A stretch of 64,000 nucleotides of DNA, taken from contig CBDFIJ010000004.1 in assembly GCA_965248055.1 (NCBI GenBank), forward strand, positions 480,001 to 544,000, in the 5' to 3' direction. Origin of the DNA: Candidatus Multivoradales bacterium. GTDB lineage: Bacteria > Acidobacteriota > Thermoanaerobaculia > Multivoradales > JAHEKO01. Made by a program: the position numbers and the translations under genes. Positions 4,037 through 60,066 of this stretch are shown piece after piece (position 1 is the first letter of the stretch; every line of letters starts with the position of its first letter). The notes under the pieces were generated by a model, which was not told the DNA's origin, made no database searches, and worked only from the letters and a program-made list of their open reading frames with translations.

Positions 4037-4217
4037 ACAACCACCAATTATAAGCCTGCGCATCAACATCTTGGCTCGTATTGCCAAATACGGTGTGACA
4101 GACATCCGGTGGGTCAGTTTTCCAATGGACTACAATCCAGACCAGCTTTTCAACGGGCCGTTGGTGGCCCCAAAATAGCGAGCCACTGCTCGAACGCGAA
4201 GGAACCAAGGAGGAACA

Positions 4218-33720: not shown

Positions 33721-35605
33721 CTCCGTCTGGGTGGCATTCAAGACAGGCACGGCTCTCGTACACATATCCGCTCACATCGTCATGATCGTCGTCAGTCTCT
33801 GATCGGCTATGTTCGTGGCAGTTAATGCACTCAAACACGCTGAAATCACTGGGTACGACGTGGCAGTCGGCACAGGTGTCCCATTCGTCACGGTGGTTTC
33901 CGGAGTCGATGGGGAAATACATGCCGTCGTGATTGAAATCAGCGTCCTCCCAGTCGTTGATGTTGTGGCAATCCTCACAGCTTGTAGGGAAACCAGCAGC
34001 TCGATGATCGGGGTCGTTGGTGTTGTCGTAGTCACTACGATGACAAGACACACACTCTGTAGAGGTATTGTCGAAACCATCGCTGTGGCAATCTTCGCAG
34101 TCGAGCCCACCATGACCACCGCGAAGTGGAAACGAATCGTGGTCAAAATTCGCGTCTTCCCAATCCACAATGTTGTGACAGTCCTGGCAGGTGGTGGGAA
34201 ACCCGGACTCAGCATGATTGGGGTCGCTGGTGTTGTCATAATCGGAGCGATGACACGACACACACTCGCTTGAAGTGTTATCAAAGCCATCACTGTGACA
34301 GTCCTCGCAGTCGAGCCCACCATGCCCGTCCCGTAGCGCAAAGAAGGTGTGATCGACTGTGGCGCCTTCCCATTCGACGATGTTGTGGCAGTCCTCACAC
34401 ATCGTCGAGATTCCCGACGCAGCGTGATCGGGGTCGCTGGTGTTGTCATAATCGAAGCGATGACACGACACGCACTCACTCGAAGTATTGTCAAAGCCAT
34501 CGCTGTGACAGTCTTCGCAGTCGAGCCCACCATGCCCGTCCCGTAGCGCGAAGAAGGTGTGATCGATTGTGGCGCCCTCCCACTCGACGATGTTGTGGCA
34601 GTCCTCACACATCGTCGAGATTCCCGACGCAGCGTGATCGGGGTCGCTGGTGTTGTCATAGTCGGAGCGATGACACGACACACACTGGCTCGAAGTATTG
34701 TCAAAGCCATCGCTGTGACAGTCCTCGCAGTCGAGCCCACCATGCCCGTCCCGGAGCGGGAAAAAAGTGTGATCTAGGACCGCTCCCTCCCAGGCAGCCG
34801 TACCGTGGCAGTCTTCACACATGGTGGAAAATCCGGAGGCTTGGTGATCCGGGTCAGTAGTGCTGTTGTAGTCGTCGGCGTGGCAGGCGTAACAATCAGT
34901 CGGCGTCCCCGCGAAGCCGTCGGCATGGCAGGCAGAGCAATCGAGAGGGGCATGGGCACCGCGCAGTGGGTAAAAGGTTTCGTGGTCGAAACCGGAACCG
35001 CCAAAGATCGCCGGCGACCAACCCTCCACACCGTGGCATTTCTCGCAGTTGGTAGAAAAGCCCAATATCACATGGTTGATATCAGCGTTTTGGTAGTCAT
35101 CTACATGGCAGCCGAAGCACTCGGTCGGAGTCAACTGGAATTCGAAGGGCGGATCTTCGTTGTGACAGGCGGCGCAGTCAGTGGCGCGGTGCGCGCCGGA
35201 AAGCGGGAACAGGGTTTCATCGTGCCAGGCTGCAAAGTCCAAACGTGCATCCCAACTACTCGGCGTGTGACAAGCCTCGCACGCGAACCCGAGTTCACCG
35301 AGGTGAGGATCTAAATGGCAATCAGCGCAAGCAGAGGCGACCTTGGAAAATTCAAAATCCAAGTGACAACTCATGCACGAAACATCACCGTGCCCGGCGG
35401 CAAGATCGAACCCGGTTGACAATTCATGGTCGAACTTAAGCGGTGACAGCAAGGGAGACCATCCCACAGTCGAGTGACAGTCGCTGCAAGACCCCGACAA
35501 CTCGCCGTGCGGGCTCTCCGGGCTCGCCTGGGCGGTCAACGTGGTCGGCGCCAGGGTGGCCGCCGCAATTACCAGCAATCGACATAACTTCCGGCTGCTA
35601 CTCAT
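33713..35605 (-). CDS. multiheme c-type cytochrome, 25 CXXCH
   Basis: 25 CXXCH counted; signal peptide; triheme repeat DH-x-F-x-L-x-x-x-H...; very acidic. Confidence 0.93.
   Translation of the reverse strand: MSSSRKLCRLLVIAAATLAPTTLTAQASPESPHGELSGSCSDCHSTVGWSPLLSPLKFDHELSTGFDLAAGHGDVSCMSCHLDFEFSKVASACADCHLDPHLGELGFACEACHTPSSWDARLDFAAWHDETLFPLSGAHRATDCAACHNEDPPFEFQLTPTECFGCHVDDYQNADINHVILGFSTNCEKCHGVEGWSPAIFGGSGFDHETFYPLRGAHAPLDCSACHADGFAGTPTDCYACHADDYNSTTDPDHQASGFSTMCEDCHGTAAWEGAVLDHTFFPLRDGHGGLDCEDCHSDGFDNTSSQCVSCHRSDYDNTSDPDHAASGISTMCEDCHNIVEWEGATIDHTFFALRDGHGGLDCEDCHSDGFDNTSSECVSCHRFDYDNTSDPDHAASGISTMCEDCHNIVEWEGATVDHTFFALRDGHGGLDCEDCHSDGFDNTSSECVSCHRSDYDNTSDPNHAESGFPTTCQDCHNIVDWEDANFDHDSFPLRGGHGGLDCEDCHSDGFDNTSTECVSCHRSDYDNTNDPDHRAAGFPTSCEDCHNINDWEDADFNHDGMYFPIDSGNHRDEWDTCADCHVVPSDFSVFECINCHEHSRSETDDDHDDVSGYVYESRACLECHPDGDD
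33950..34790 (-). repeat. four tandem 210-bp coding repeats (70 aa, three hemes each)
   Basis: equivalent anchor C(G/A)CTGTG(A/G)CA(G/A)TC(C/T)TCGCAGTCGAGCCCACCATG at 34081, 34291, 34501 and 34711. Confidence 0.92.
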
Positions 35606-35745
35606 AAGAATAGAGTCTCCAGCCGGACAGCCACAGAGCAACGGAAAAGATGGCTATGGCAACGATCATATCCGTGGATGTTCATCGATTCGTTTTGATA
35701 GTGCTCTCGTTGGCACTAAATTAGGATACCAAGCCTAAGTTACAG

Positions 35746-35761
35746 TGTGATGACCGTCATT
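35746..35761. promoter_or_regulatory. CRP/FNR-family-like site in divergent intergenic region
   Basis: TGTGA-TGACCG-TCATT versus consensus TGTGA-N6-TCACA. Confidence 0.35.
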
Positions 35762-35859
35762 TTGCAGTCGCAATCTGGCCTTAATGGTTGAGTTGATAGA
35801 CGTGAGCTTTACCAGAAATCTCTATCTCTGGCGCAAGAACTGAAAGAATCAACCAACCG

Positions 35860-36765
35860 GTGCCAACCCGCAAGTCCCAATCAACCACCGCCGCCACCCC
35901 ATCGGCAGTCCTTACTCGCCCACGGCTACCTTGGGCGGTCGGGGTTCTCTATGTGCTTTCGTTGGTCGTTCTAGCCTATTTCGCAGTCAATGGCTGGGAC
36001 TACTACACCACACCGCTGATCGAACGACCTCGCCACGAATTGTACTGGGCGTTAAAGCCCGGCGGCGAACTGGGTCGAGTTTTCGGAATCGTCGGTACCG
36101 CCTTGATGCTCTTGATGTTGTCGTACTCAGTACGCAGGAGATGGAAAGCCCTGGCAGGAATCGGGAACTTGGCTACCTGGCTTGATTTTCATATTTTCTG
36201 TGGAATCATCGGACCACTCTTTGTTGTTCTTCACAGCTCGTTCAAAGTGACTGGACTGGTAGCGCTGAGTTTTTGGTCGATGGTGCTGGTTGCGGCCAGC
36301 GGCGTAGTGGGTCGGTTTCTCTACCAGCAGATTCCGCGGCGACGGTCCGGGGACGAATTGAGTCTCGCTGAAGTTGAGGCAAGAAGACAAAGGGCGAAAC
36401 TCAGCTTATCGAGGGATTTCGGTGTCACCATAATCCACTTACAGCGCATCGAGGAAGTCGCCCTGGCAGGAGTCGATTCACAAGCTGGACTGCTGAAGGC
36501 CCTGCTAACCATGCCGGTGGCAACATCGATCGTTCGGCTGCGCATCCGCCATCTTGCCCGCCAGTTCCCTTCGGTAAATAAAAGCCAACTTGGCCGACTG
36601 CTCGAAGAGCAAGCGCTATTATCCATGCGAGTATCGATGTGGAAGCGGACCCATGAGCTGTTCCACTACTGGCACGTTCTGCACCGCCCTTTTGCCCTAG
36701 TTATGTATCTTTTCGCCGCAGTCCACATTATCGTAGCAACGGTCACTGGCTACGGCTTCAACTGA
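35860..36765 (+). CDS. inner-membrane protein with heme-b-type His ligands (ferric-reductase/cytochrome b-like)
   Basis: about 5 TM helices; WLDFHIFCG..LHS and WHVLHRPF..VHI, each a His pair 13 residues apart; TGATG overlap with the next gene. Confidence 0.7.
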   Translation: MPTRKSQSTTAATPSAVLTRPRLPWAVGVLYVLSLVVLAYFAVNGWDYYTTPLIERPRHELYWALKPGGELGRVFGIVGTALMLLMLSYSVRRRWKALAGIGNLATWLDFHIFCGIIGPLFVVLHSSFKVTGLVALSFWSMVLVAASGVVGRFLYQQIPRRRSGDELSLAEVEARRQRAKLSLSRDFGVTIIHLQRIEEVALAGVDSQAGLLKALLTMPVATSIVRLRIRHLARQFPSVNKSQLGRLLEEQALLSMRVSMWKRTHELFHYWHVLHRPFALVMYLFAAVHIIVATVTGYGFN

Positions 36766-38636
36766 TGCAGCGACGACTCGTCGCAGCTTGCCTGGGAGGA
36801 ATCTTTCTGTTCGCTGTCCCGACAACAGCTCAGATCTCCCCCGGCCCGCTGGCCGACTCCCACAGCGACCTAGAAGGCAGTGGCAACTGCCTCAAATGCC
36901 ACACTCGCGGGGAAGGAGTCGAACCTAGCAAGTGTCTAAGCTGCCACCAGCCGCTACAACAGCGAATTGAGCGCGGCACCGGGCTGCATGCCGCAGTTGG
37001 CTATGAAGCCTGCAAAATCTGCCACATCGATCATCATGGTCGGTCGTTTGATTTGATCTATTGGGGCGATCAAGGGGTCGAAGAATTCGACCACACTCTG
37101 ACCGGCTATCCATTGAAAGGCGGCCATCTAAAGATTGATTGTCGAGATTGCCATCGTTCGGAATCCGTAGTCGATCCGGGGCCGCTTGTCCAAACCGGGA
37201 AGAAACTAAACCGGACGTATCTAGGCTTGAGCCCAGAATGCAATTCTTGCCACGCGGACACGCACCAGACTCAATTTGGCTCAACCCCTTGTGATTCGTG
37301 CCACCTTGTTGACGGTTGGAAGCCAGCTAGCCAGTTTGACCACGACCAATCCAACTTCGTACTCTCCGGTGGCCACCAAGAAGTTGCGTGCAATGGGTGT
37401 CATGATTCCGAAAACAGTGCCTCTGGGGACCTAGTTACGCGCTTCAAGCCGGTCCAACACCGGCTGTGTTCCGATTGCCACGCCGACCCCCACAGCGGCA
37501 GCCTGGGAGCCGAGTGCATGAGTTGCCACGGTACTTCTTCCTGGTCTGCGATCATTGGTTTCGACCACGACCGAACGAACTTTCCGCTAACTGGCGGTCA
37601 TCGGCAGGCTGCGTGTAGCGGCTGTCACCGAAATCAACGAGCAAAGCAACAGTACTCCAACATCGCCCACGCGGCTTGTACCGACTGCCATTCCGATCCA
37701 CACGAAAACAGACTCAGTGCCGAGTGCAAGTCTTGCCACACAACCTTGAGCTGGGCGGAAATTGCACCTGAAGCGTTCAACCACGAACAAACAAACTATC
37801 CTCTTGAAGGATCTCACCAAAACCTAGAGTGTGTATCTTGCCATCGAGTTGGCGAACCTTTGAGGATCACCGGCTTTGAACGCTGCGGCACCTGCCACGT
37901 TGATACTCACCTCGGTCAATTCACTCACCTAGGCTCACTAGGTGAATGCGCAACCTGTCACAACGTCAACGCGTTCTTACCGGCTCATTTTTCGTTGGAG
38001 GACCACCAGCAAAGCCGCTTTCCTCTTACTGGCCTACATCAAGCGATTCCTTGTCTGGCCTGCCACCAAGAAGCCGTCATCAGATCATCCGACGGTCGCA
38101 CTGAGAGCTTGGCCAGGAAGTTTCTCTTTGACGATTTGACCTGCTCTGCTTGCCATCGAGACCCTCACCAAGGTTCCGCCGACACTTGGCTGGCTCAAGA
38201 CGGGTGTTCAACCTGCCACACAACCGCTGCTTGGAATACCACCCGTTACGACCACAACGCTACTGAGTTCCCTTTGGAAGGGATGCATCTTTCAGTACCC
38301 TGTTCCGGATGTCACGCTGAAAATCTAACTGCCCAGCAACAAACTGAGGGGCAATACCCACTACGCCTTGCGGCAACGCCCAAGGAGTGCGCCTCCTGTC
38401 ATCAGGATATCCATCTAGGGCAGTTTTCTGGACGAGCTGGCGCCTGCCAGAGCTGCCATGCCAGCACAAGCTGGCAGGATCTCTCCTTTGACCACAATCG
38501 AGATGCGCGCTTTCCACTGGAAGGCGCTCACGCCGCCGCTTCATGTGCCTCCTGCCATTTTTTCGCCTCGCAGAACGAACCGGTTCGTTACGCACCGTTG
38601 CCAATTCTCTGTAACGATTGCCACAGTCAGAGCTAA
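36765..38636 (+). CDS. multiheme c-type cytochrome, 23 CXXCH
   Basis: 23 CXXCH counted; signal peptide ending before QISPG; FDH..T.FPL.G.H triheme repeats. Confidence 0.93.
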   Translation: MQRRLVAACLGGIFLFAVPTTAQISPGPLADSHSDLEGSGNCLKCHTRGEGVEPSKCLSCHQPLQQRIERGTGLHAAVGYEACKICHIDHHGRSFDLIYWGDQGVEEFDHTLTGYPLKGGHLKIDCRDCHRSESVVDPGPLVQTGKKLNRTYLGLSPECNSCHADTHQTQFGSTPCDSCHLVDGWKPASQFDHDQSNFVLSGGHQEVACNGCHDSENSASGDLVTRFKPVQHRLCSDCHADPHSGSLGAECMSCHGTSSWSAIIGFDHDRTNFPLTGGHRQAACSGCHRNQRAKQQYSNIAHAACTDCHSDPHENRLSAECKSCHTTLSWAEIAPEAFNHEQTNYPLEGSHQNLECVSCHRVGEPLRITGFERCGTCHVDTHLGQFTHLGSLGECATCHNVNAFLPAHFSLEDHQQSRFPLTGLHQAIPCLACHQEAVIRSSDGRTESLARKFLFDDLTCSACHRDPHQGSADTWLAQDGCSTCHTTAAWNTTRYDHNATEFPLEGMHLSVPCSGCHAENLTAQQQTEGQYPLRLAATPKECASCHQDIHLGQFSGRAGACQSCHASTSWQDLSFDHNRDARFPLEGAHAAASCASCHFFASQNEPVRYAPLPILCNDCHSQS

Positions 38637-38960: not shown

Positions 38961-40324
38961 GGATCCGTCCCGATTGTTGTGGAAATTGAGAAAGGCGTAA
39001 CCTCCGGTAGTCAAAAACCGTCGCCGAGTAGGCGAAAGGAGGCTACGCCATGGACAAGAGTACCAATCAGAGACCGGAATCATCTCGTTTCCACCAAGAT
39101 ATTCAGTCAAAGCTTCAGCACCGTATCCGGGAAGCAATCGAAATAGTTCTAGAAGAAGAGCTTGCTGACGCATTGGGTTGTGTTGCGTACGAGCGCTCAG
39201 ATGAGCGCTCGGGCTATCGCAACGGCAAACAAGAGCGGACGATCACGACCCGATACGGATCCCGGCAACTGCGAATTCCTCGTGGTCGGGTAGTAGGCCA
39301 AGATGGATCCACTGAGGAGTTTCAAAGCCAGCTTGTTGAGCGCTACCAGCGGCGCACCCGAGAGGTGGATGAAGCGATTCTCGGCTGCTACCTAGCAGGG
39401 GCCAACAGCCGTCGGATCAAGAAGGCCTTGACTCCACTGCTGGGCAGGGAGCATCTATCCAAGAGCGCTGTGTCTCGGGTGGTATCTCGTTTGAAGGAGC
39501 ACTTTGCCCGTTGGAGTGATCGAGGCCTGTCCGAGGAAAGCTACCCGATCTTGTTTCTTGATGGCTTTCACTTGAAAGTGCGGCTTGCTCGGCGCGTGGT
39601 GTCAGCTCCGGTGCTGGCTGCTCTGGGGGTAAGAAAAGATGGCACCAAGGTACTGGTAGCTCTACGGTTAGCAGCCAGTGAGGCAGGCAGTCACTGGAAG
39701 TGGTTGATTGAAGATCTTAAACGCAGGGGCTTGAAAGCACCGCATCTCCTGGTCTCAGACGGCCACAAGGGCTTGGCGGTGGGAGTCAGGGCTTGGCCAG
39801 AGGCCAAAGTCCAGCGCTGTATCCAGCACAAGTGGGAAAACCTGAAGAAGCACTGCCCTAAGCATGCTCATGGTGAGCTCAAGCGAGACTGGGATCAAGT
39901 GGTGCGAGCCCAAGATGCCCTGGCGGCCCGAGAGAGTTATTCAATCTTTGTTACCAAGTGGTCCAAGCTGGTGCCCGCAGTAGCCAGGAGTTTTCAAGAG
40001 GCTGGGATGGAACTGATCACTTTCTACGATTTACCGAGATCATTGTGGCGATCCACAAGGACCACCAACGCGCTGGAGAATCTCAACCGTGAGTTTCGGC
40101 GCCGTACCAAGACCCAAGGCTCATTCTCGACTGAGGCAGCGGGTGTTACCTTGCTCTGGGGACTCGTCGCTTTCGGTCAGATCAAGATGCACCGCATCAA
40201 CGGCTACCAAGACTTGCACCGGATGCTTGACCGTCAAGCAGCCGCGTAGGACTAGAATCAACTAAACCTGACTGCGGGAGACGCTACGCCAAATACCAAT
40301 TTCCACAAGATTCGGGACACATCC
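38961..40324 (+). mobile_element. IS256-family insertion sequence, 1364 bp
   Basis: 27-bp imperfect IRs GGATCCGTCCCGATTGTTGTGGAAATT / AATTTCCACAAGATTCGGGACACATCC; 8-bp TSD GACGATCT. Confidence 0.95.
39050..40249 (+). CDS. IS256 family transposase
   Basis: YRNG, LFLDG, VSDGHKG, QRCIQH, TTNALENLNRE. Confidence 0.95.
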   Translation: MDKSTNQRPESSRFHQDIQSKLQHRIREAIEIVLEEELADALGCVAYERSDERSGYRNGKQERTITTRYGSRQLRIPRGRVVGQDGSTEEFQSQLVERYQRRTREVDEAILGCYLAGANSRRIKKALTPLLGREHLSKSAVSRVVSRLKEHFARWSDRGLSEESYPILFLDGFHLKVRLARRVVSAPVLAALGVRKDGTKVLVALRLAASEAGSHWKWLIEDLKRRGLKAPHLLVSDGHKGLAVGVRAWPEAKVQRCIQHKWENLKKHCPKHAHGELKRDWDQVVRAQDALAARESYSIFVTKWSKLVPAVARSFQEAGMELITFYDLPRSLWRSTRTTNALENLNREFRRRTKTQGSFSTEAAGVTLLWGLVAFGQIKMHRINGYQDLHRMLDRQAAA

Positions 40325-48864: not shown

Positions 48865-50400
48865 ATGAAAATCCCCTCTCTCATTCTCAAACAGCTCTAT
48901 ACCTTCGGCACCCTGGAAAACAAGAATGCCAACGTCGTTTTCCAGCTGAAAAACCGACTCAGCGACGCCCAGCTCACCGGAGTCGAAGGGATCAAAATCA
49001 ATGGGGAGTCTGTGGACGGTGATCGAATCACCCTGCGTCAGGGCGAGCAGCAGGTCTCTGTAGGGGCAATTTCCACAGAGCAACCCTTTGCTTTCCCGCT
49101 CGGAAGTTTGGCCGAAATCGAAATTAGCGATCTCACTCTGAAGGAAGGACGCCACAACCTCGCCTTTCACTTCCTTGCCGAACCATTTGGAAAACTGAAG
49201 TTTGAGGTCCGCGACGCAATTGCCGAGAGAGTTCATCGAGTCAGCGTGCCCTATGACCAGGATGATGACTACAGCCACCAGGCGATCAGTTCCCGTCAGG
49301 AGTTCATCAAGAAAACCTCGGGTGCGAACCTGGAGCACTTGGGGCAGTATTCGTTCGACCCTGGGGTGACTCAAGGCAACATCGAAAACTTCACCGGGGT
49401 GGCGCAGGTACCACTGGGTTTCGCTGGACCGTTGACGGTGCACGGCGAGCACGCTGACGGCGACTTCCTGGTGCCCTTGGCAACCACCGAGGGCACTCTG
49501 GTTGCTTCCTACAACCGGGGGATCAAGGCACTCAACCTGTCCGGAGGCTGCATCGCCACGGTGGTCGACGATTCGATGCAACGGGCTCCGGTCTTCGTTT
49601 TTGACTCGGCCCGCGAGGCGCGCGGGTTTCGCGATTGGGTTTACCAGAACATCGACCGCATCCGAACTGAGGCAGAAAACACTTCGAGCATCGCCAAGCT
49701 GGTTTCGATTGAGACCTTTTTGGCCGCTCGCTTTGCCTACCTGCGGTTTAACTTCACCACCGGAGACGCCGCCGGGCAGAACATGGTTGGCCGGGCCACC
49801 TTTGCCGCCTGTTCGTGGATCCTGGATAACCACGACGAGATTCGACGTTTCTACTTGGAGTCCAATCTGGCGACGGACAAGAAAGCCTCGCAGGTCAACG
49901 TGATGCGCACCCGGGGTAAGCGAGTGGTGGCGGAAGCAACCTTGGATCGCGAAGTGTTGGCCCAACACATGCGAGTCCGGCCGGAATCGTTGCAGTATCA
50001 CTCCCAAGTGGCCAACGTCGGTGCCTTCTTGTCGGGCGCTAACAACAACGGTTGTCATTCTCCCAACGCCATCACCGCCATGTTTATCGCCACCGGCCAG
50101 GATGTCGCCAACGTTTCCGAGTCGTCGGCAGCGATCTTTTACTCTGAACTCCTCGAGTCGGGTGATCTGTACGTCTCGCTGACCATTCCTTCTTTGATCG
50201 TCGCCACCTACGGCGGCGGCACCGGTCTGCCCACCCAGCGCGAGTGCCTGGAAGTAATGGACTGCTATGGCAAAGGCAAGGTCCGCAAATTCGCCGAAAT
50301 CGTCACCGCGGTCGCCTTGGCTGGCGAGATTTCACTGGCCTCGGCAATCTCCTCATTGGACTGGGTTTCCAGCCACGAACGTTATGGCCGCAACCGCTGA
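48865..50400 (+). CDS. hydroxymethylglutaryl-CoA reductase-like protein (class I-like) with N-terminal extension
   Basis: IENFTG, ATTEGTLVAS, TGDAAGQNM, DKK, TGQD, GGGT, terminal His; GGAGG RBS before MKIPSL. Confidence 0.88.
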   Translation: MKIPSLILKQLYTFGTLENKNANVVFQLKNRLSDAQLTGVEGIKINGESVDGDRITLRQGEQQVSVGAISTEQPFAFPLGSLAEIEISDLTLKEGRHNLAFHFLAEPFGKLKFEVRDAIAERVHRVSVPYDQDDDYSHQAISSRQEFIKKTSGANLEHLGQYSFDPGVTQGNIENFTGVAQVPLGFAGPLTVHGEHADGDFLVPLATTEGTLVASYNRGIKALNLSGGCIATVVDDSMQRAPVFVFDSAREARGFRDWVYQNIDRIRTEAENTSSIAKLVSIETFLAARFAYLRFNFTTGDAAGQNMVGRATFAACSWILDNHDEIRRFYLESNLATDKKASQVNVMRTRGKRVVAEATLDREVLAQHMRVRPESLQYHSQVANVGAFLSGANNNGCHSPNAITAMFIATGQDVANVSESSAAIFYSELLESGDLYVSLTIPSLIVATYGGGTGLPTQRECLEVMDCYGKGKVRKFAEIVTAVALAGEISLASAISSLDWVSSHERYGRNR

Positions 50401-52136
50401 TGGTGCCGATGTCTGCGGTATCGGAGCGCCAGCCGGTGCCTGACGCCCAAGCTGCACCCGAGCAGCCGACCGGGCCAGCGTCGATGCCGGGATCGGACCC
50501 TACCGGGGGGTACGATCTCTTCAGAGAGCAAAAGACCCCCGGTCTGTTGCGTCGGCTACTGACCACCCAGCGGCATTTTCTCGGTCTCTTGTTCGGCGGT
50601 ATCGTTGCTTACGCCCGGGACGCCGGCGTTGAGCGGCGCAACACCTTTCATCATCTGCTGCTGCGCGGCGTGGCTTTGCCCGCGGGGTGGCTAGTTGATA
50701 GCGAATTGCGCGCCGAGCCTTTTCCGGTACAACTGCGCAAGCGCCTCGAGCTTCTCGGCACCACCTACATCAAGCTCGGCCAGATCTTGAGTCTTCGACA
50801 GGATCTCCTACCGCCGGTCATCACCAACGAGTTGCAACAGCTCTTGGCTCGTCTCCCGGCACTGCCCTTTGACCGCTTCCTGGAACTAGTAACCGCTGAG
50901 ATCGGCAGGCCCACAGAGGACGTCTTCTCGTCGATTCACCCGGAGCCGCTGGGCTCGGCCTCGATCGGACAAATCCACCGGGCCACGACGATCGAGGGCG
51001 AAGAAGTTGTCCTCAAGCTGGTCAAACCCGGCATTAGAGAGACCTTACAGCGCGATGTCGTTCTGCTGCGCATCGTCGGTCAATTGCTGGAATGGATCGT
51101 TCCCCGGGTGCAACCCAAGAAGACGATCCGAGAATTCTGTGACTACACCCTGCGTGAGGTTGACTTGCGGCTGGAGGCAGACAACGCCGACACTTTCTCC
51201 GCCAACTTCAGCGATGAACCAGACATCGTGTTCCCCACTATTCGAAGGGATCTCTCGACCCGCAACCTGTTGATCCAAGAGTTCTTCAATGGCGTGACCC
51301 CTGGACCCGAGGCATCCTCGACATTGGACGAGGCGGAGCGCGCGCGGATGATCGACCTTGGCGCCAAGGCAATCGTGCGCATGCTCTACAAAGACGGCTT
51401 CTTTCACGCCGATTTGCACCCGGGCAATTTAATGATTCTGCCGGGTGGCCGGGTCGGATTCATCGACCTGGGCATGGTCGGTCGTTTCCACGAAGAAGTG
51501 CGGCGCGGGCTGCTCTACTACTACTACAGTCTGGTGATGGGAGACGCCGAAGGGGCCGCCCGTTACCTCACCGCAATGGCTGAAGTGGCTCCGCGCGGTG
51601 ACGCCCAGGCGTTTCGTCATGATGTCGAGGAAATTTGTCGACGCTGGCAGCGCGGCTCCTCTTTTGCAGACTTCTCGATCGGTCGACTGATCTTGGCCTG
51701 CGTCGCCCGAGGTGCTTGGCACCGGCTCTACTTTCCGGTCGAGATGGTGCTTATGGTCAAGGCTCTGGTCACCTTCGAAGGGGTCGGCAGGCAACTGGAC
51801 GAAGAGTTCGACGTGCGCTCGGTTTCCCAGCGACACATCAACCAAATCTTTATCCACCAGTTCAGTCCGATGCGGATCGCCCGGGAGGGATTGCGCGGTG
51901 CTCCTGAGTTGGTAGACGTTCTGGTCAAGAGCCCGATGCTGCTCACCGAGGGGATGCGATTTTTGGAGCAGGCGACTAGAAAACCCCCGGAGAACCCTCT
52001 GGCTGGTCTGCGCGGCACTATGTTTGCTGGCGCCTGTATCGTCTCCGGTGCAGTTCTCTTGGGGCTTTCTGGCCCGACTTGGCTGGGGATCGCATTTCTG
52101 GTCCTCGGCTTTCTCACCGCCCTCAAGCGGTCATGA
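50400..52136 (+). CDS. AarF/ABC1/UbiB family atypical kinase
   Basis: YIKLGQ, SASIGQIH, FHADLHPGN, IDLGMVG; TGATG coupling. Confidence 0.92.
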   Translation: MVPMSAVSERQPVPDAQAAPEQPTGPASMPGSDPTGGYDLFREQKTPGLLRRLLTTQRHFLGLLFGGIVAYARDAGVERRNTFHHLLLRGVALPAGWLVDSELRAEPFPVQLRKRLELLGTTYIKLGQILSLRQDLLPPVITNELQQLLARLPALPFDRFLELVTAEIGRPTEDVFSSIHPEPLGSASIGQIHRATTIEGEEVVLKLVKPGIRETLQRDVVLLRIVGQLLEWIVPRVQPKKTIREFCDYTLREVDLRLEADNADTFSANFSDEPDIVFPTIRRDLSTRNLLIQEFFNGVTPGPEASSTLDEAERARMIDLGAKAIVRMLYKDGFFHADLHPGNLMILPGGRVGFIDLGMVGRFHEEVRRGLLYYYYSLVMGDAEGAARYLTAMAEVAPRGDAQAFRHDVEEICRRWQRGSSFADFSIGRLILACVARGAWHRLYFPVEMVLMVKALVTFEGVGRQLDEEFDVRSVSQRHINQIFIHQFSPMRIAREGLRGAPELVDVLVKSPMLLTEGMRFLEQATRKPPENPLAGLRGTMFAGACIVSGAVLLGLSGPTWLGIAFLVLGFLTALKRS

Positions 52137-53290
52137 CCGACACGGCCAAACCACCCTACGACCCGGTCGACATCGAATACTTTCGCGACCTATCGCACGA
52201 CATCTTCGGGCCATTGCTCGACAGCTACTTCCGTCCACGCTTGGTCGGTGCGGACCGCCTTCCAGAGAACGGTCCAGCCATCCTCGCCGCCAACCACAGT
52301 GGCACTGCGTTTCCTTGGGATGCGATGGTCTTTGATTATCTGATGTTTCGCCGCAATGGCCTACGCAAAGACAACCTAGTACGCCCGGTGTTTGAGAAAG
52401 AACTGGCCCAGGCTTGGTGGATGCGACCCTTCGGAATCGATGATTTCTGGCGTCGAGGCGGTGGGGTCGATATGACCTTCGACAATTTCGACCGTCTGCT
52501 CGAGCACCGCAAATCGGTACTTTATTTTCCCGAAGGGGTTCCTGGGATCGGCAAAGGGTTCCAACGTCGCTACCAACTCCAGCGCTATAGCTCCAGCTTT
52601 GTCCTACTCGCCGCCAAGCACGCAGCGCCGGTCTATCCGATCTACATCATCAACGCCGAGTGGGTGATCCCCTACAACTTCACCTGGAAGCCACTGGATC
52701 GCTTGGTGCAGCGCCTGGCGCGGGTTCCGTTCATGCCGCTTCCCGCCGGGCCTCTGGCGATGACCTTCCCGTGGATGTGGTATTTGGCCTTGCCAGCCCG
52801 CATGGTGTTCGTCGTCGGCGAAGGTTTCGACGTGCGACGAATCGCCCAGGAGTGTGGCTTCGATCCAGAGGACTTGGATCGCGATCGAGCGAGACAGGTC
52901 GCAGAAGAAATTCGGGTTCGCATGCAACGGCTGCTCGATCAAAAGGTTGATAAGTACGGTCGCGCCCCTTACCACTGGCGCTCGCTCAAAGAGACACTGC
53001 GTACCCAAGGTGGCAAGGCATTGATGCCCTGGCGCTGGCCCTGGTTGTTCGTGCGCCACAACCGTAACCGCCAGCGGCCGGCAGCACATAATTGGCTCCA
53101 CCGGTGGCTACGCGATTGGGATCTATTCGGCTATTACCTGCCCTTCGGTTGGCCGATCCTGGCGCTGGCTAGAAAGTTCCGCAAGCCTCCGTGCGGCTAC
53201 CGTGGCCTGACCCAAGATCAGCGGCGCGAACGCGAAGGAACCTTTCTGTGGAAGTTATCCGATCGACCCTTGCCCAAATCTGAAGCGTAG
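52133..53290 (+). CDS. lysophospholipid/DGAT2-like acyltransferase
   Basis: ANHSG....WD, YFPEG; ATGA coupling. Confidence 0.8.
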   Translation: MTDTAKPPYDPVDIEYFRDLSHDIFGPLLDSYFRPRLVGADRLPENGPAILAANHSGTAFPWDAMVFDYLMFRRNGLRKDNLVRPVFEKELAQAWWMRPFGIDDFWRRGGGVDMTFDNFDRLLEHRKSVLYFPEGVPGIGKGFQRRYQLQRYSSSFVLLAAKHAAPVYPIYIINAEWVIPYNFTWKPLDRLVQRLARVPFMPLPAGPLAMTFPWMWYLALPARMVFVVGEGFDVRRIAQECGFDPEDLDRDRARQVAEEIRVRMQRLLDQKVDKYGRAPYHWRSLKETLRTQGGKALMPWRWPWLFVRHNRNRQRPAAHNWLHRWLRDWDLFGYYLPFGWPILALARKFRKPPCGYRGLTQDQRREREGTFLWKLSDRPLPKSEA

Positions 53291-53341
53291 CTTTGTACGC
53301 CGATTGAGAGTGGCGCCGCACAGAACGCTTCAGTCGTTCGA

Positions 53342-53680
53342 GGGTGGATCCACCCAAGACTGAATTGCCGACAGATCCCGGCCCCCCGAAACCACCCCCG
53401 CCGGGATGACCAAAGGGGGGCGTGCCCGCCGGGGCAACGGAAAGGAGGGGGCGTTGGTTAAATCTCTGTCTGTTCTCGGTCATTCCCGCTCTGGGAGGGA
53501 GTGGGGCGAGCCAGTTCTTGTCATCCTGAGCGGAGGCCGCAGGCCGGAGTCGAAGAATCTCAATGGCCCGAACCTGTCCAATGCAGGAAAGACAGCAGAT
53601 CGCTCCCGGCTTTCAAAGTCACTTCTGCCGGGATGATGCAGGAGAGGGCGCAACGGGGGCATACCCGCCGGAATGACAAC
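53342..53680. repeat. cluster of REP-like GTCAT(C/T)C / GG(G/A)ATGA elements between convergent genes
   Basis: CCGGGATGAC 53401, GTCATTCCCG 53479, GTCATCCTGAGC..GAAGAATCT 53520, CCGGGATGAT ~53628, CCGGAATGAC ~53668. Confidence 0.6.
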
Positions 53681-53687
53681 TTCACAG

Positions 53688-54926
53688 TCAGTTATCGATC
53701 AACGCGTCAACTCGATCCAGGGCACTGCTGAGATCACCCAGGACGCGACTGGGTTTGGGGTGCCGCTGATCGGCATCGGTTTCGAGTTCTTGCAAGTCGG
53801 GCTTGTCCCATAGGCCATCGGTAGATGCCAATGCCTCCTGGGAGAGATGCGCGCCATGTTCGGCCAAGATCGGCGCCAGTTCTTCACTGCGATCGTGCAG
53901 TTCGGCCCGGGTGCGCCGGTAGGCGTGGTCCGCCAGGCTCCGGCGTGAGGAAAAGCTGAAGATATTGGTGAAAAACATCCGGTAGTCATCGCGCTTGGGT
54001 TCCAGCAGCACCACATCGGCGCCGCCAAAGCGATTTTGGTAGGTCGCCATGCCCACTTCCAGGCGCGAGTGGATCAAGGTGCGGAAGGTCTGCGCCATCA
54101 CCGTCGGCAGCCCGCGATCCACCAGCTTGCCGCGCTTCATGATCCCTTCGGCTACGGCTCTCGAGGTGTCGACTGGCACGATTGGATTGAGACACAGCAG
54201 CAGATTGGCCCCCTCTTCCAAGGCCACCGAGGCGTGCAAGGTCTTGAGTAGAACACCGTCCACGTAGTGTCGATGGTCGATCTCAACCGGAGGATAGAGA
54301 CCCGGGAGCGCACTCGACGCCTGCACCGCGATCGAGATCGGCACGTGGTCCCAATCTCTACTCCCAAACTGCACCGCCGTCCCAGAATCCAGATCGGCGG
54401 CAATGACAAAGAGCTTGCTCTTGAGGGCGCGAAAGTCGTTGGTGCGCCCTTTCATCGAGTAGATCCGTTCCAAGTAGTTGCGAATCGGTCGGTTGTCGAA
54501 AAATCCCACCGGCAACGCTCGCCCCAGTCGGGTTAGCGACTCGAGCAGGGACTCATCAGCGGGATCGGTGAGGTAAGCACGCACTGCGTCGAGCAATAGG
54601 CTGGGGGTACGCAGGCCACCTTGCAGCCACTGACGCGTGGCCGGAGTCAGAAATGTGGTGGGAACGAAAGGATGTTCGCCCGGATCGCTCTTGACGATCG
54701 CCCGGCACATCTGCGCTGGCGTCAAACCATTAGCGAGGTTGGCGCTTAAGAACGCACCGGCACTGACACCAACATAGATGTCCAACGCATTGAGGTCGAG
54801 GTCGGGGATCGCCTCGCTCACCGCATAGAGCGCACCGATCTCGTAAACCGCCCCTTCAGGGCCACCTCCGGCAAGCGCAAGGCCGATCCGGGACTTCCCC
54901 GACCGGCCGTCAGTTCGCGACACCAA
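53688..54926 (-). CDS. patatin-like phospholipase / PHA-depolymerase-like
   Basis: LAGGGPEG, GVSAG, ASSALPG, YVDG. Confidence 0.88.
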   Translation of the reverse strand: MVSRTDGRSGKSRIGLALAGGGPEGAVYEIGALYAVSEAIPDLDLNALDIYVGVSAGAFLSANLANGLTPAQMCRAIVKSDPGEHPFVPTTFLTPATRQWLQGGLRTPSLLLDAVRAYLTDPADESLLESLTRLGRALPVGFFDNRPIRNYLERIYSMKGRTNDFRALKSKLFVIAADLDSGTAVQFGSRDWDHVPISIAVQASSALPGLYPPVEIDHRHYVDGVLLKTLHASVALEEGANLLLCLNPIVPVDTSRAVAEGIMKRGKLVDRGLPTVMAQTFRTLIHSRLEVGMATYQNRFGGADVVLLEPKRDDYRMFFTNIFSFSSRRSLADHAYRRTRAELHDRSEELAPILAEHGAHLSQEALASTDGLWDKPDLQELETDADQRHPKPSRVLGDLSSALDRVDALIDN

Positions 54927-54932
54927 GCAGAC

Positions 54933-55337
54933 CTAGGCGGTCTTGCGGGTCGCTCTCTTCTTGGCAGTTTTTCGGGCAGGTTTCTTCTCAACCGCATTCA
55001 GCTTGTCGGTCAGCTCTTCGACCCGTGCCACCAGATTTTGAATCTCGCTGCGGCTGGGCAGGCCCAACTTGTCAAGTGCTTTGCCAACCTTCTGGTCCAC
55101 GGTGCTCTCGACCTTGTCCCACTGGTTGCCCAGGGCGTCGATGGCGTCGCCGGCCTTCTCTTTGACCATTTTGAGATCGCCCTTGCGACGACCCTCAAAC
55201 TTCTCGCCCTTGTGCACTAAGTTGGTGAACAGCTTGCTGCCCTCTTCCTCGGTAACCGCCAGCGCGCCCAAGCCCGCTAGCCAAATCTTGTGCGCTGATT
55301 CTTTGATGTCGGTGGTGATGTTCTTCTTCTTTGCCAT
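54933..55337 (-). CDS. phasin (PhaF/PhaI-type granule-associated protein)
   Basis: IWLAGLGA, EGSKLF..LV.KGE, LGLPSRSEI, Lys-rich tail; GGAGG RBS. Confidence 0.88.
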   Translation of the reverse strand: MAKKKNITTDIKESAHKIWLAGLGALAVTEEEGSKLFTNLVHKGEKFEGRRKGDLKMVKEKAGDAIDALGNQWDKVESTVDQKVGKALDKLGLPSRSEIQNLVARVEELTDKLNAVEKKPARKTAKKRATRKTA

Positions 55338-55368
55338 GGTCGTGTCCTCCGTATGGACGTTTTTGTAA

Positions 55369-55854
55369 CTAACTCTTAGCGTCCGCAGCTTCACCCAGGG
55401 TCGCCTTTCGGGATGTTCTTTTCTTGGTTACCGGTTTTGTCAGCGACTGGATTGAATCTTCCAATTCACTCAGGCGTTGACGTAGCTCCTGCATTTCTTC
55501 ACGTGCACGTCGCACCGGTGCCACCTTGTCGAACGAAGCGTTAACCAAGCGATCGACGCCAGCCTGCACCTGCTCCACACCGCTGTGCAATACATGCTCT
55601 CCGCGGCGCACTAGATCGTGCAGCAGACTTGAGGGCAAAGGCTTACCGTTGCGCCCTTCCTCCAGAATGATCTGGGTCAAAGTCTGAGCGGTAACATCTG
55701 CTCCCGAGCGCTTGTCGACAACTTGAATCTCCTGACCCTCGCGAATCCAATCCGCCAACTCTTCTAGTAGCACGTAACGACTCTCGTCGGTGTCGTAGAG
55801 CTTGCGACTGGAATAGCGAGTGATGTTCTTGGTGGTTGTCGTTGTTTTGGACAT
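55369..55854 (-). CDS. phaR: PhaR-type polyhydroxyalkanoate synthesis regulator
   Basis: RYSSRKLYDTDESRYV.LEEL, VVD...G.DVT..TLTQIILE. Confidence 0.85.
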   Translation of the reverse strand: MSKTTTTTKNITRYSSRKLYDTDESRYVLLEELADWIREGQEIQVVDKRSGADVTAQTLTQIILEEGRNGKPLPSSLLHDLVRRGEHVLHSGVEQVQAGVDRLVNASFDKVAPVRRAREEMQELRQRLSELEDSIQSLTKPVTKKRTSRKATLGEAADAKS

Positions 55855-55911: not shown

Positions 55912-55967
55912 ATGCCGCTATGCGGCATAGTCAAAGACAAATATACCGCGCTGCGGCAAAATGTCAA
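55912..55967 (-). promoter_or_regulatory. phaR promoter with two PhaR-like operators
   Basis: minus strand TTGACA(55967-62)-N16-TATATT(55945-40); TGCCGCAGCGCGGTA across the spacer; palindrome ATGCCGC-TAT-GCGGCAT at 55912-55928. Confidence 0.7.
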
Positions 55968-56106: not shown

Positions 56107-56361
56107 ATGACCCATATCATCGCTGAGCCTTGTGTAGATGTGAAAGACACGGCGTGCGTCGATGTCTGCCCCGTGGATTGCATTTACGGAACGGATGAGG
56201 ACTGGGAGATGCTTTATATCCACCCTGAGGAGTGCATCGATTGCGGCCTGTGTATCGACGCTTGCCCGGTGGAGGCGATCTTCACGGAAGAAGATGTCCC
56301 AGAAAAATGGCATGCATTTATCGCCAAGAACTACGAACATTTCGGCATCGACGCTCCCTAG
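56107..56361 (+). CDS. 7Fe-type ferredoxin
   Basis: CVDVKDTACVDVCP and CIDCGLCIDACP. Confidence 0.92.
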   Translation: MTHIIAEPCVDVKDTACVDVCPVDCIYGTDEDWEMLYIHPEECIDCGLCIDACPVEAIFTEEDVPEKWHAFIAKNYEHFGIDAP

Positions 56362-58260: not shown

Positions 58261-59082
58261 TGAGACACTTGGCCCCCTGATAATTAGAGGGCGGAAGGAG
58301 GTTTCAGTATGTTTCAGAATCAGCCCATATTTCCCGTCTCGCCGAAGGCGACCGAGGAGCGTAGCGACGAGAGAGCCGGAGGGGAGACGGTGCATTTGTC
58401 CTCGACCCCCGAATCGGTACCCGACCCTGAGATCGAGGCTCGACCCGCCAGACGGCGGTTTACGGCAAAGTACAAGCTGGCGATCTTGGAGCAGGCCGAC
58501 GCTTGCTCCAGCCGAGAGGAGGTCGGGTCCCTGTTGCGCCGGGAGGGTCTCTACTCATCTCATCTATCTAACTGGCGCCTAGCTCGGCGACGGGGATCGC
58601 TTGCCGCGCTAGGCAAGAGGCGCGGACGCAAACCCAAAAGGCACCCGTTGGAAAGCAAGGTTGCTCGACTAGAGCGGGAGAAGACTCGGCTTGAGAACGA
58701 ATTGCACAGGGCACAGCTGATCATCGATGTGCAAAGAAAAGTAGCCGGGCTGCTGGGTATCCCCTCAGAGGGCGAGAAGAACTCGTGAAAGCGGCCAGGA
58801 CGCTGGCTCCGTGGGTCGGTATCGCACCGGCCTGCCGGAGCCTGAGCGTCAGTCGTGCAACGTTCTATCGTCGGCTTCGGCCGAGATCAACCGAGCCTCA
58901 GCAGCCTCGACCGACTCCAGCTCGGGCACTGACAGTCAGCGAAAAACAACAGGTCCTTGACCTACTCAACGGGCCGCGCTTTGTCGACGCTGCACCGGCG
59001 GCCGTGGTGGCCACCCTTCTCGACGAAGAACGCTATCTGTGCTCGGAGCGCACCATGTACCGACTCCTGGCAGCTGAGAAGA
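58261..59082 (+). mobile_element. IS3-family element, left part (orfA 58309-58788, truncated orfB from 58785)
   Basis: RRRFTAKYKLAIL..LLRREGLYSSHL; VSRATFYR..CSERTMYRLL; probable TG-starting left end; cut by an IS256 end. Confidence 0.8.
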
Positions 59083-59144
59083 GGATGTGTCCCGAATCTT
59101 GTGGAAATTGGTATTTGGCGTAGCGTCTCCCGCGGTCAGGTTTA
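59083..59144 (-). mobile_element. right end of the same IS256 (fragment)
   Basis: reverse complement of 40263-40324 with one mismatch. Confidence 0.92.
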
Positions 59145-59943
59145 GGGCGTGTTCACACTAGTTGATGTATACTCGGTGGATGGAAATAACAATAGAACAA
59201 TTTGCCCGAATCGAGCCTTTCCTTCCACGACAGCGTGGCAATGTATCGATAGATAACCTCCAGGTGCTCAACGCGATACTTTACGTTGCAGAACATGGCT
59301 GTAAGTGGCGCGGGCTGCCGAAGCGTTTTGGTAATTGGCATACCGTCTATACGCGTATGAACCGTTGGGCAAAGAAAGGCGTGCTGGATCGAGTGTTTAG
59401 TGAACTGCAACGCCAGCAAGTCATTCAGGTCCGTGTTGAGGCGGTTTCACTCGATAGCACAGCGGTTAAGGTACACCCTGATGGAACGGGCGCTCTAAAA
59501 AAAACGGTCCACAGGCGATCGGCAAGTCGCGGGGAGGATGGACTACAAAGATTCATATGGTTGCCGCAGATGCTCGGACCGCAGTGAATTTTTCTCTGTC
59601 TCCTGGCAATGCTGCTGACGCGCCAGAGGGTCGTAAACTATTGAGAGAAACAACCCTATCGGCCAAATACATGATTATGGACCGAGCGTATGAAGGTAAT
59701 GAAACACGCCAACTCGTGCTCGATCTTGGTCTTACACCTGTTGTGGCGCCGAAAAGCAATCGATTACAACCTTGGCTATACGACCGAGAAATGTACAAGA
59801 AGCGCAATGAAGTCGAGCGCTTGTTTCGTCGCTTGAAGGGGTTTCGTCGGATATTCTCACGCTTCGACAAATTGGACATAATCTTCACATTCTTCATACA
59901 CTTCGCACTCATTGTCGATGCTATATTTAGCGTTAACGCGCCC
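59145..59943 (+). mobile_element. IS5-family (IS427-like) element, two ORFs joined by -1 frameshift
   Basis: IRs GGGCGTGTTCACACTA / TAGCGTTAACGCGCCC; TA flanks; A8 at 59497-59504; LDST, GKSRGGWTTKIH, DRAY, RNEVERLF. Confidence 0.92.
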
Positions 59944-60066
59944 TAACTCCATCAGAGCCAAATTGAACTGATCATTCCTAACGCTACCACCCCAGATCGG
60001 TATGATGCTGCTCCACGTCCAGCATCCACTCTATCCACAACTGATCCGCCCCTAAGAACCTCGGCC

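Follow-up and report, generated by a model that had tools for sequence, protein, structure and literature searches.

A candidate neutral-lipid body module around a fatty acyl-CoA reductase of HMG-CoA reductase ancestry in an acidobacterial genome

We analysed a stretch of 64,000 nucleotides, hereafter the window, from a Candidatus Multivoradales bacterium (GenBank assembly GCA_965248055.1, contig CBDFIJ010000004.1; G000:C4:480001-544000). The source genome measures 3.4 Mb and is 97.7% complete, and the closest named homologues belong to Acidobacteriota, for the most part to Thermoanaerobaculia. The window contains two convergent operons. One comprises a gene of HMG-CoA reductase (HMGR) ancestry, here named fcrA, followed by genes for an ABC1/UbiB-family protein and an acyltransferase; the other encodes a PhaR-like regulator, a phasin-family protein and a patatin-like lipase (Table 1). 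We regard it as moderately probable, from the sequences, that the two operons form a module for neutral-lipid bodies of the wax-ester type, in which the acyltransferase would replace the wax ester synthase/diacylglycerol acyltransferase (WS/DGAT). All six genes claimed by the initial annotation of this stretch were recovered in place by open reading frame (ORF) calls, Pfam and NCBIfam, and its remark that phaC/phaAB and further mevalonate genes are missing from the window is borne out among the 56 ORFs scanned. An HMGL-like gene at 2792-4105, about 2 kb from an isopropylmalate-dehydrogenase-family gene, was ruled out as a mevalonate gene. The stop codon of the ABC1 gene and the start codon of the acyltransferase gene overlap as ATGA, and the HMGR/ABC1 junction reads TGATG with a 1-nt overlap, conditional on an ABC1 start at 50400. 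Because a second ATG occurs at 50484 and the orthologue alignments open at query residues 4-45, translational coupling of the reductase and ABC1 genes is likely but not certain. Of the three coupled genes described initially, the acyltransferase/ABC1 pair therefore stands, and the HMGR/ABC1 pair hinges on the start at 50400.

Table 1. Features of the two convergent operons (positions in the window)
Feature	Position	Strand	Evidence and remarks
fcrA, fatty acyl-CoA reductase of class I HMGR ancestry, 511 aa	48865..50400	+	PF25653 HMG-CoA_red_N 111.6 bits; PF00368 419.4 bits
Lad domain of fcrA product	~residues 7-119 (48883-49221)	+	PF25653
Catalytic domain of fcrA product	residues 141-509 (49285-50391)	+	PF00368
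ABC1/UbiB-family atypical kinase/ATPase, hydrophobic C-terminal tail	50400..52136	+	PF03109 191.4 bits; alternative start 50484
PlsC-fold acyltransferase, distinct ~400-aa subfamily	52133..53290	+	PF01553 38.8 bits
Convergent intergenic spacer, three copies of genome-wide short repeat	53291..53687	.	CCGCCGGGATGA-like
Patatin-like lipase/esterase, 412 aa as ORF drawn	53688..54926	-	PF01734 87.2 bits
Phasin-family coat protein, Lys/Ala/Arg-rich C-terminal tail	54933..55337	-	PF05597 107.9 bits; ORF extends to 55394
PhaR-like DNA-binding regulator	55369..55854	-	PF07879 82 bits, residues 11-69
Paired palindromes TGCCGC-N3-GCGGCA, candidate PhaR-like operators	55913..55958	.	55913-55927 exact; 55944-55958 one mismatch
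Sigma-70-like promoter of phaR-phasin-patatin operon	55940..55967	-	TTGACA, 16 nt, TATATT; 11/12 matches

The product of the first gene is almost certainly a fatty acyl-CoA reductase of the FcrA type, judging by its signature residues. FcrA is an HMGR-derived clade of such reductases (Grossi et al. 2025, ISME J; PMC11948995). As described there, the assayed Pb-FcrA of 'Ca. Promineifilum breve' converts acyl-CoA of at least C14 to fatty alcohol with NADPH, and alcohols are formed in vivo; HMG-CoA is not reduced, and simvastatin is no inhibitor (PMC11948995). The hallmarks given in the same paper are three pocket substitutions, Ser684 to Glu, Lys735 (printed as 'Lys795') to a small residue and Leu862 to Trp, together with an N-terminal all-beta 'Lad' domain present in many but not all members (PMC11948995). 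In the window protein, the catalytic residues Glu559, Lys691, Asp767 and His866 of the human enzyme are retained as E209, K339, D413 and H504, which are invariant across 26 homologues from the phylum and 48 from many phyla. Alignment with solved class I HMGRs and canonical paralogues shows that human S684 corresponds to E332, K735 to A383 and L862 to W500. In all 26 and all 48 homologues E332 and W500 are invariant and position 383 is Ala or Ser, while the genome's own canonical HMGR carries S, K and L in these columns. The residue numbers are those of the Natronomonas pharaonis FcrA modelled in PMC11948995 minus 28, or minus 27 for the catalytic Glu.

The N-terminal part agrees with the pocket. 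A Lad domain is recognised by PF25653 (111.6 bits, residues 7-119), and the AlphaFold2 model of the reductase (pLDDT 84.1) has nine beta strands in residues 18-119, with a pLDDT of about 90 there. The protein is 66% identical to a homologue from a Promineifilaceae metagenome-assembled genome (MAG), which serves only as a proxy for its placement with Pb-FcrA, versus 35% to the canonical HMGR of its own genome. The marks of a canonical HMG-CoA reductase are missing: Glu and Ala occupy the positions of the HMG carboxylate ligands Ser684 and Lys735, and the NCBIfam score for TIGR00533 is 345.3, below the cut-off of 441.8. We also rejected a replacement of the catalytic His by Asp, since alignment to the canonical paralogues identifies the His of the 'GHL' motif as H861, not the catalytic one, and places the true H866 at H504. 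A search of the genome for FarA-type reductases gave only weak and generic reductase-like PF07993 matches of at most 49.8 bits. The initial suggestion that the HMGR homologue acts as an acyl-CoA reductase is thus supported by the presence of every FcrA signature residue and fits the published biochemistry; for this enzyme the idea is already in print (PMC11948995).

The reductase appears to be independent of the mevalonate pathway. A second PF00368 gene of the same genome lies inside a complete mevalonate operon (G000:C4:1285500-1291000; locus L005:7531-12987) with the order IDI2, HMGR, mevalonate kinase, MVD/PMD-family decarboxylase and isopentenyl phosphate kinase; the HMG-CoA synthase gene is at a separate site, and Dxr was not found in this genome. 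Because this operon holds its own canonical HMGR, the window reductase is an extra paralogue, and the full pathway that the initial annotation had asked to look for leaves its proposal standing. The isopentenyl phosphate kinase suggests that in this acidobacterium the pathway ends by the alternative, archaeal-like route. Among 401 sampled genomes of the phylum, 26 contain PF25653. In 17 of the 25 other carriers the FcrA gene is the sole PF00368 match. Dxr occurs in 20 of these 25 and was not found in the other five. An MVD-family gene was found in six, all with further PF00368 copies, and in none of the remaining 19. These counts repeat, on other genomes, the statement of independence made in PMC11948995.

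The gene neighbourhood was surveyed at two scales. Within the phylum, 20-kb stretches from the 25 other FcrA genomes were searched by tblastn with the window proteins. ABC1 lies directly downstream of the reductase in 16 of them, the acyltransferase is present in 8, and PhaR-phasin falls within the stretch in 16, 15 of which also contain patatin; in 6 stretches the reductase is alone, and 2 contigs end early. This arrangement of the operons is far from chance. The wider survey took one genome per species and recovered at least 588 carriers at 60-68% identity, belonging to Acidobacteriota, Chloroflexota, Gemmatimonadota, Bacteroidota/Rhodothermales, Calditrichota, KSB1, Myxococcota, Acidimicrobiia and others. 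The genes were tallied by tblastn over 100 unique loci, with family names from Pfam scans of cluster representatives. ABC1 was most frequent (42 loci, 39 of them adjacent), followed by PhaR (28), phasin (24), patatin (21), WS/DGAT and an ArsA/Get3-like ATPase (17 each), the acyltransferase (12), a GMC oxidoreductase (9) and an acyl-CoA synthetase (7). Beyond Acidobacteriota, both operons occur together in Gemmatimonadota (L150, L153) and Rhodothermales (L167) and, rearranged, in KSB1 (L133). The two operons are therefore linked in many genomes of several phyla, as the initial annotation had required of its proposal.

The third gene of the reductase operon had been labelled DGAT2-like, and this label is wrong. 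The product matches PF01553 (38.8 bits against a cut-off of 23) and has the PlsC fold, with no PF03982 match at E<=0.01. Clusters carrying both PF01553 and PF03982 appeared at rank 7 (score 0.93) of a language-model look-up, a lead only, and a search of the genome for PF03982 gave no match, a weak result since the control matched nowhere. No NCBIfam family matched, and a sequence search of the PDB returned nothing meaningful. We found 794 homologues, the best 120 of them at 55-80% identity. Invariant in the family are N54-H55, D63 and P133-E134-G135. The motif of PlsC/GPAT-type (LPLAT) acyltransferases is HX4D; here His55 and Asp63 are spaced as HX7D instead, and the PEG block is invariant. 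The AlphaFold2 model (pLDDT 86.1) has PlsC (5kym), GPAT (1k30) and PatA as its closest folds, the best match being 5kym (E 2.5e-4, TM-score 0.53 on the target). A WS/DGAT identity was excluded, as PF01553 alone matched and PF03007 and PF06974 did not.

The acyltransferase and WS/DGAT are distributed in a complementary way. Neither a PF03007 search of the whole source genome nor 13 WS/DGAT protein queries detected a WS/DGAT there. In related loci, where it was recognised by PF03007 and PF06974, WS/DGAT occupies the position of the window acyltransferase in L153 and L057, and the two enzymes share none of the 100 loci. WS/DGAT is found in 20 of the 25 other FcrA genomes of the phylum, one match (G365) being marginal at 21.9 bits, and acyltransferase orthologues of at least 53% identity in 9. 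Counted over all 26, six genomes have the acyltransferase only (seven if G365 is discounted), four have both (three without G365), 16 have WS/DGAT only and none has neither. Four further genomes of the acyltransferase type from other lineages, whose completeness is unknown, contain no WS/DGAT. Because of this slot replacement and complementary distribution, we infer that the acyltransferase takes over the role of WS/DGAT, which is the weakest link of the proposed module.

The choice between a wax ester and an ether lipid as the product turns on this enzyme. Ether lipids occur in Acidobacteria, and both the PlsC/GPAT fold and the PF01553 match favour a route in which the FcrA fatty alcohol and the action of the acyltransferase on glycerol-phosphate-type intermediates would yield membrane alkyl glycerolipids or neutral alkyl-diacylglycerols. 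PMC11948995 itself proposes ether lipids for FcrA genomes with a PlsC-like gene. However, the FAD-oxidase_C family, that of alkyl-DHAP synthase, was not found in the source genome in a search with 10 of 14 controls positive. The acyltransferase and WS/DGAT exclude each other in one slot and complement each other across genomes, which fits equivalent rather than different roles, and the conservation of phasin, lipase and repressor genes next to the reductase operon speaks for inclusions and not for bulk membrane lipid. Ether-lipid synthesis is the main and a serious rival of the wax-ester reading, and on this evidence we consider it rather unlikely.

The second gene of the operon encodes an ABC1-family protein that matches PF03109 but is not UbiB by NCBIfam (TIGR01982, 301.1 against 487.55; NF003404, 214.4 against 667). 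Its closest solved structures are the mycobacterial ABC1 proteins 5yjz and 7cy2, followed by COQ8. The translation shows the ABC1-family motifs KxGQ, an Ala-rich loop, HxDxHPGN and DLG. An orthologue group at 52-81% identity comprises 25 genomes, and all other ABC1 matches in the phylum reach at most 36%. Orthologues are present in 22 of the 26 FcrA genomes, four being without, versus 3 of the 375 others. These three (G119, G131 and G165) have no Lad-FcrA, and all have strong phasin matches. ABC1 kinases are described as droplet proteins in cyanobacteria and plastids (PMC12223511). By analogy with these plastoglobule and cyanoglobule kinases and with UbiB/COQ8, the membrane-anchored ABC1 protein would probably handle or regulate hydrophobic intermediates at the membrane or droplet surface.

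The opposing operon resembles the control region of a polyhydroxyalkanoate (PHA) granule. The phasin matches PF05597 and scores 87.9 for TIGR01837, below the cut-off of 94.7; the PhaR-like protein scores 77.5 for TIGR01848, below 109.45, only its N-terminal PhaR domain being recognised. The patatin translation contains the motifs GGGxxG, GVSAG (GxSxG) and DGV. Phasin is present in 23 of the 26 FcrA genomes versus 43 of the 375 others. PhaC_N was found in none of the 26 and class III PhaC was not found in the source genome; the search for phaC suggested in the initial annotation thus returned no PHA synthase. It is very improbable that the operon belongs to a PHA granule system with an unrecognised synthase and has the reductase operon as an unrelated neighbour. 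The PhaR-type and phasin-type domains are named after PHA granules, but both proteins fall below the NCBIfam cut-offs, PhaC was not found, and in several phyla the operon is again linked to FcrA, ABC1, WS/DGAT and the acyltransferase.

Upstream of phaR, the spacer of the 11/12-match promoter is filled by the palindrome at 55944, which also overlaps the -10 hexamer. In 22 of 29 loci, the 250 nt before phaR contain sites of the TGCCGC-N3-GCGGCA type, in most cases two of them about 30 nt apart. Over the whole window, matches with up to two mismatches show no excess over chance (5 versus 6.5 expected), so the case for an operator is one of position, pairing and conservation only. Genome-wide there are 3 exact sites versus 0.56 expected. 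A second tandem pair (C4:725671-725707; L173:3172-3208) precedes an ACAD9/ACADVL-like gene of 646 aa by 50-86 nt. The presence of this pair before a predicted very-long-chain acyl-CoA dehydrogenase suggests that beta-oxidation may be co-regulated, and the pattern would fit a PhaR-type repressor controlling coat, lipase and beta-oxidation. A small ferredoxin gene (56107-56361, + strand) is divergent from phaR and has two 4Fe-4S-type Cys clusters as read from the sequence; this gene is kept beside the cluster in five loci (the window, L041, L049, L051 and L102).

Related loci contain further recurrent genes. The ArsA/Get3-like ATPase with an HSP20-like domain and the GMC oxidoreductase adjoin PhaR-phasin-patatin, for example in L153, L053, L043, L167 and L114, and aldehyde dehydrogenases and an acyl-CoA synthetase are also recurrent. 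Together these genes could be a fatty-alcohol oxidation branch together with a tail-anchor insertion factor for droplet proteins. Some HMGRs are oxidative, for example the class II enzyme of Pseudomonas mevalonii, and the frequent oxidoreductase, aldehyde dehydrogenase and synthetase genes resemble fatty-alcohol catabolism. The reductase might then run in reverse, from fatty alcohol and CoA to acyl-CoA, in a cluster serving growth on external waxes or alcohols. We find this very unlikely, since the reductase shares its transcription unit with a presumed ester-forming enzyme, the acyltransferase or WS/DGAT, the catabolic genes lie on the PhaR/patatin side of the clusters, and the assayed FcrA uses NADPH reductively and makes alcohols in vivo (PMC11948995). 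Least credible of all is a second true HMG-CoA reductase isoenzyme making mevalonate, perhaps regulated at lipid bodies, for which the strong PF00368 match, the four catalytic residues and the use of the mevalonate pathway by the genome would speak, but against which stand the S684 to E, K735 to A and L862 to W changes, the missed NCBIfam cut-off, the pathway operon with its own HMGR, the 19 of 25 other carriers in which no MVD-family gene was found, the 20 of 25 with Dxr and the failure of the assayed homologue to reduce HMG-CoA (PMC11948995).

Beyond family membership, what we say about function in this cluster is inferred. In the wax-ester module as we picture it, FcrA would reduce long-chain acyl-CoA with 2 NADPH to a fatty alcohol, the Lad domain holding the alkyl chain; this step is in print for homologues and is predicted for the window protein from its signature residues. 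The acyltransferase would then most likely esterify the fatty alcohol or an alkyl-bearing acceptor in a genome where no WS/DGAT was found. The phasin-family protein would coat the resulting droplets and the patatin, with its intact Ser-Asp dyad, would mobilise them. The PhaR-like repressor would bind the two palindromes over its own promoter, and droplet formation would titrate it, switching on coat and lipase by analogy with the PhaR paradigm. The storage-lipid idea of the initial annotation is supported in its essentials: wax-ester-type inclusions, the phasin coat and the patatin are supported by WS/DGAT in the corresponding slot of relatives and by the absence of PhaC_N from all 26 FcrA genomes, and isoprenoid esters are without support.

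Several points weigh against the wax-ester module. PlsC/GPAT-fold members acylate glycerol-phosphate-type acceptors, and we know of none whose acceptor is a free fatty alcohol. Where a PlsC-like gene adjoins fcrA, the published interpretation is, as noted, ether-lipid synthesis (PMC11948995). No operator was found upstream of fcrA, where only 6 of 99 loci show a site, all with 2 mismatches, so co-regulation of both operons is unsupported. ABC1 tracks the droplet gene set and not strictly FcrA: G119 and G131 combine the orthologue and phasin with canonical HMGR only, so that the link of the coat/ABC1 part to FcrA is not a strict one. In Chloroflexota loci the reductase mostly stands alone. The compared genomes are kin, and the co-occurrence counts overstate their independence. 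In this organism the module is known from its genes, and its enzyme activities, lipids and inclusions are predicted.

A literature search on this cluster found nothing for the ABC1 partner, for the PhaC-less operon with its operator or for the acyltransferase/WS-DGAT swap. These three features are likewise missing from the main text of PMC11948995, whose supplements may already list some neighbours. Beyond the published FcrA, the new elements are the complementary distribution of acyltransferase and WS/DGAT, the counts of PhaC and phasin, and the operator. A broader generalisation can be put forward only tentatively, as possible and not as probable: at least four phyla may share a dedicated lipid-droplet set (PhaR-like repressor with operator, phasin, patatin and one ABC1 orthologue) that derives from, or is ancestral to, the PHA toolkit and works without PHA synthase, and the ~400-aa PlsC-fold family may be a new type of wax-ester (fatty alcohol O-acyl) synthase replacing WS/DGAT.

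Some observations on the reductase family stand apart from the module. One genome encodes, at L084 (G171:C72), a 398-aa reductase with FcrA-type pocket residues and without Lad, beside a Lad-bearing copy. Two loci have two reductase copies a few kb apart (the loci concerned in this observation are L084, L124 and L133). Many proteins of ~120 aa match the Lad domain alone (P0146, P0165, P0216, P0220, P0251, P0255, P0257 and others); they represent either free-standing Lad proteins or fragments of genes on short contigs. An FcrA locus at 60% identity (L147) comes from a MAG labelled as a Thermoplasmatales archaeon, which could reflect gene transfer into archaea other than Halobacteriales or faulty binning.

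The remainder of the window offers the following context. The short repeat CCGCCGGGATGA has 75 copies genome-wide, three of them in the convergent spacer at 53393-53676; the relaxed motif GCCGG[GA]ATGA has 128 genomic copies versus ~18 expected, often paired less than 300 nt apart. The repeat may be a REP-like (repetitive extragenic palindromic) element. An Rfam search of the window returned no RNA family. A Mutator-family transposase gene lies at 39050-40249, and insertion sequence fragments (HTH_Tnp_1, DUF4096, DDE_Tnp_1) occupy 58309-59946, just past an SLT gene that flanks the cluster. Two large, divergent multihaem cytochrome c genes at 33713-38636 with Cytochrome_C7 and MtrC/MtrF-like domains were also found, suggesting extracellular electron transfer.

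The analysis has consequences for annotation and for lipid biology. Thousands of bacterial genes of this type are misannotated as 'HMG-CoA reductase', and the window gene should be named FcrA. Neutral-lipid storage is called 'unexplored' for Acidobacteriota and Bacteroidota in a passage of a 2023 survey (PMC10351704), and the cluster names components of neutral-lipid bodies that can be tested in Acidobacteriota, Gemmatimonadota and their relatives. Should the PlsC-fold enzyme prove to make wax esters, bacteria would have a third way of producing these lipids, which are of industrial use, and such a role would explain the use of fatty alcohol in FcrA genomes without WS/DGAT. The operator offers a direct way to test PhaR-type granule sensing on lipid droplets, and the ABC1 partnership could make the function of UbiB/COQ8-family proteins, which is still unclear, tractable in bacteria.

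Four known systems invite comparison. PhaR-PhaP granule control in Cupriavidus and Paracoccus shares with the window the PhaR-type DNA-binding domain, the phasin-family gene that immediately follows the regulator gene, and operators in the form of TGC...GCA palindromes that cover the promoter of the regulator itself. It differs in that PHA synthase is found in none of the 26 genomes, the window regulator has no recognisable C-terminal PhaR domain and falls below the equivalog cut-off, a patatin lipase replaces the PHA depolymerase, and a second pair of sites precedes an acyl-CoA dehydrogenase gene. The published FcrA and WS/DGAT pathway (PMC11948995) has in common with the window the Lad domain on a class I HMGR core, the catalytic tetrad, the three pocket substitutions and the independence from the mevalonate pathway, and WS/DGAT adjoins FcrA in many related clusters. 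Unlike that pathway, the window genome has no detected WS/DGAT and carries a PlsC-fold acyltransferase in the slot; ABC1 and the PhaR-like/phasin/patatin operon have no occurrence in the paper's main text. ElbD-type ether-lipid synthesis in Myxococcus, a FadD-ACP-FAR-PlsC fusion cited in PMC11948995, likewise combines an alcohol-forming reductase with a PlsC-like acyltransferase. Its reductase is FarA-type whereas that of the window is HMGR-derived, and the window genes are separate with an ABC1 gene between them. Finally, plastoglobule and cyanoglobule droplets also have ABC1-family proteins on neutral-lipid droplets together with an acyltransferase, but the account in PMC12223511 gives them a prenyl-lipid cargo and a fibrillin coat, where the window has a fatty-alcohol-forming reductase and a phasin homologue, and the window ABC1 protein belongs to a separate orthologue group with at most 36% identity to the other ABC1 paralogues of its phylum.

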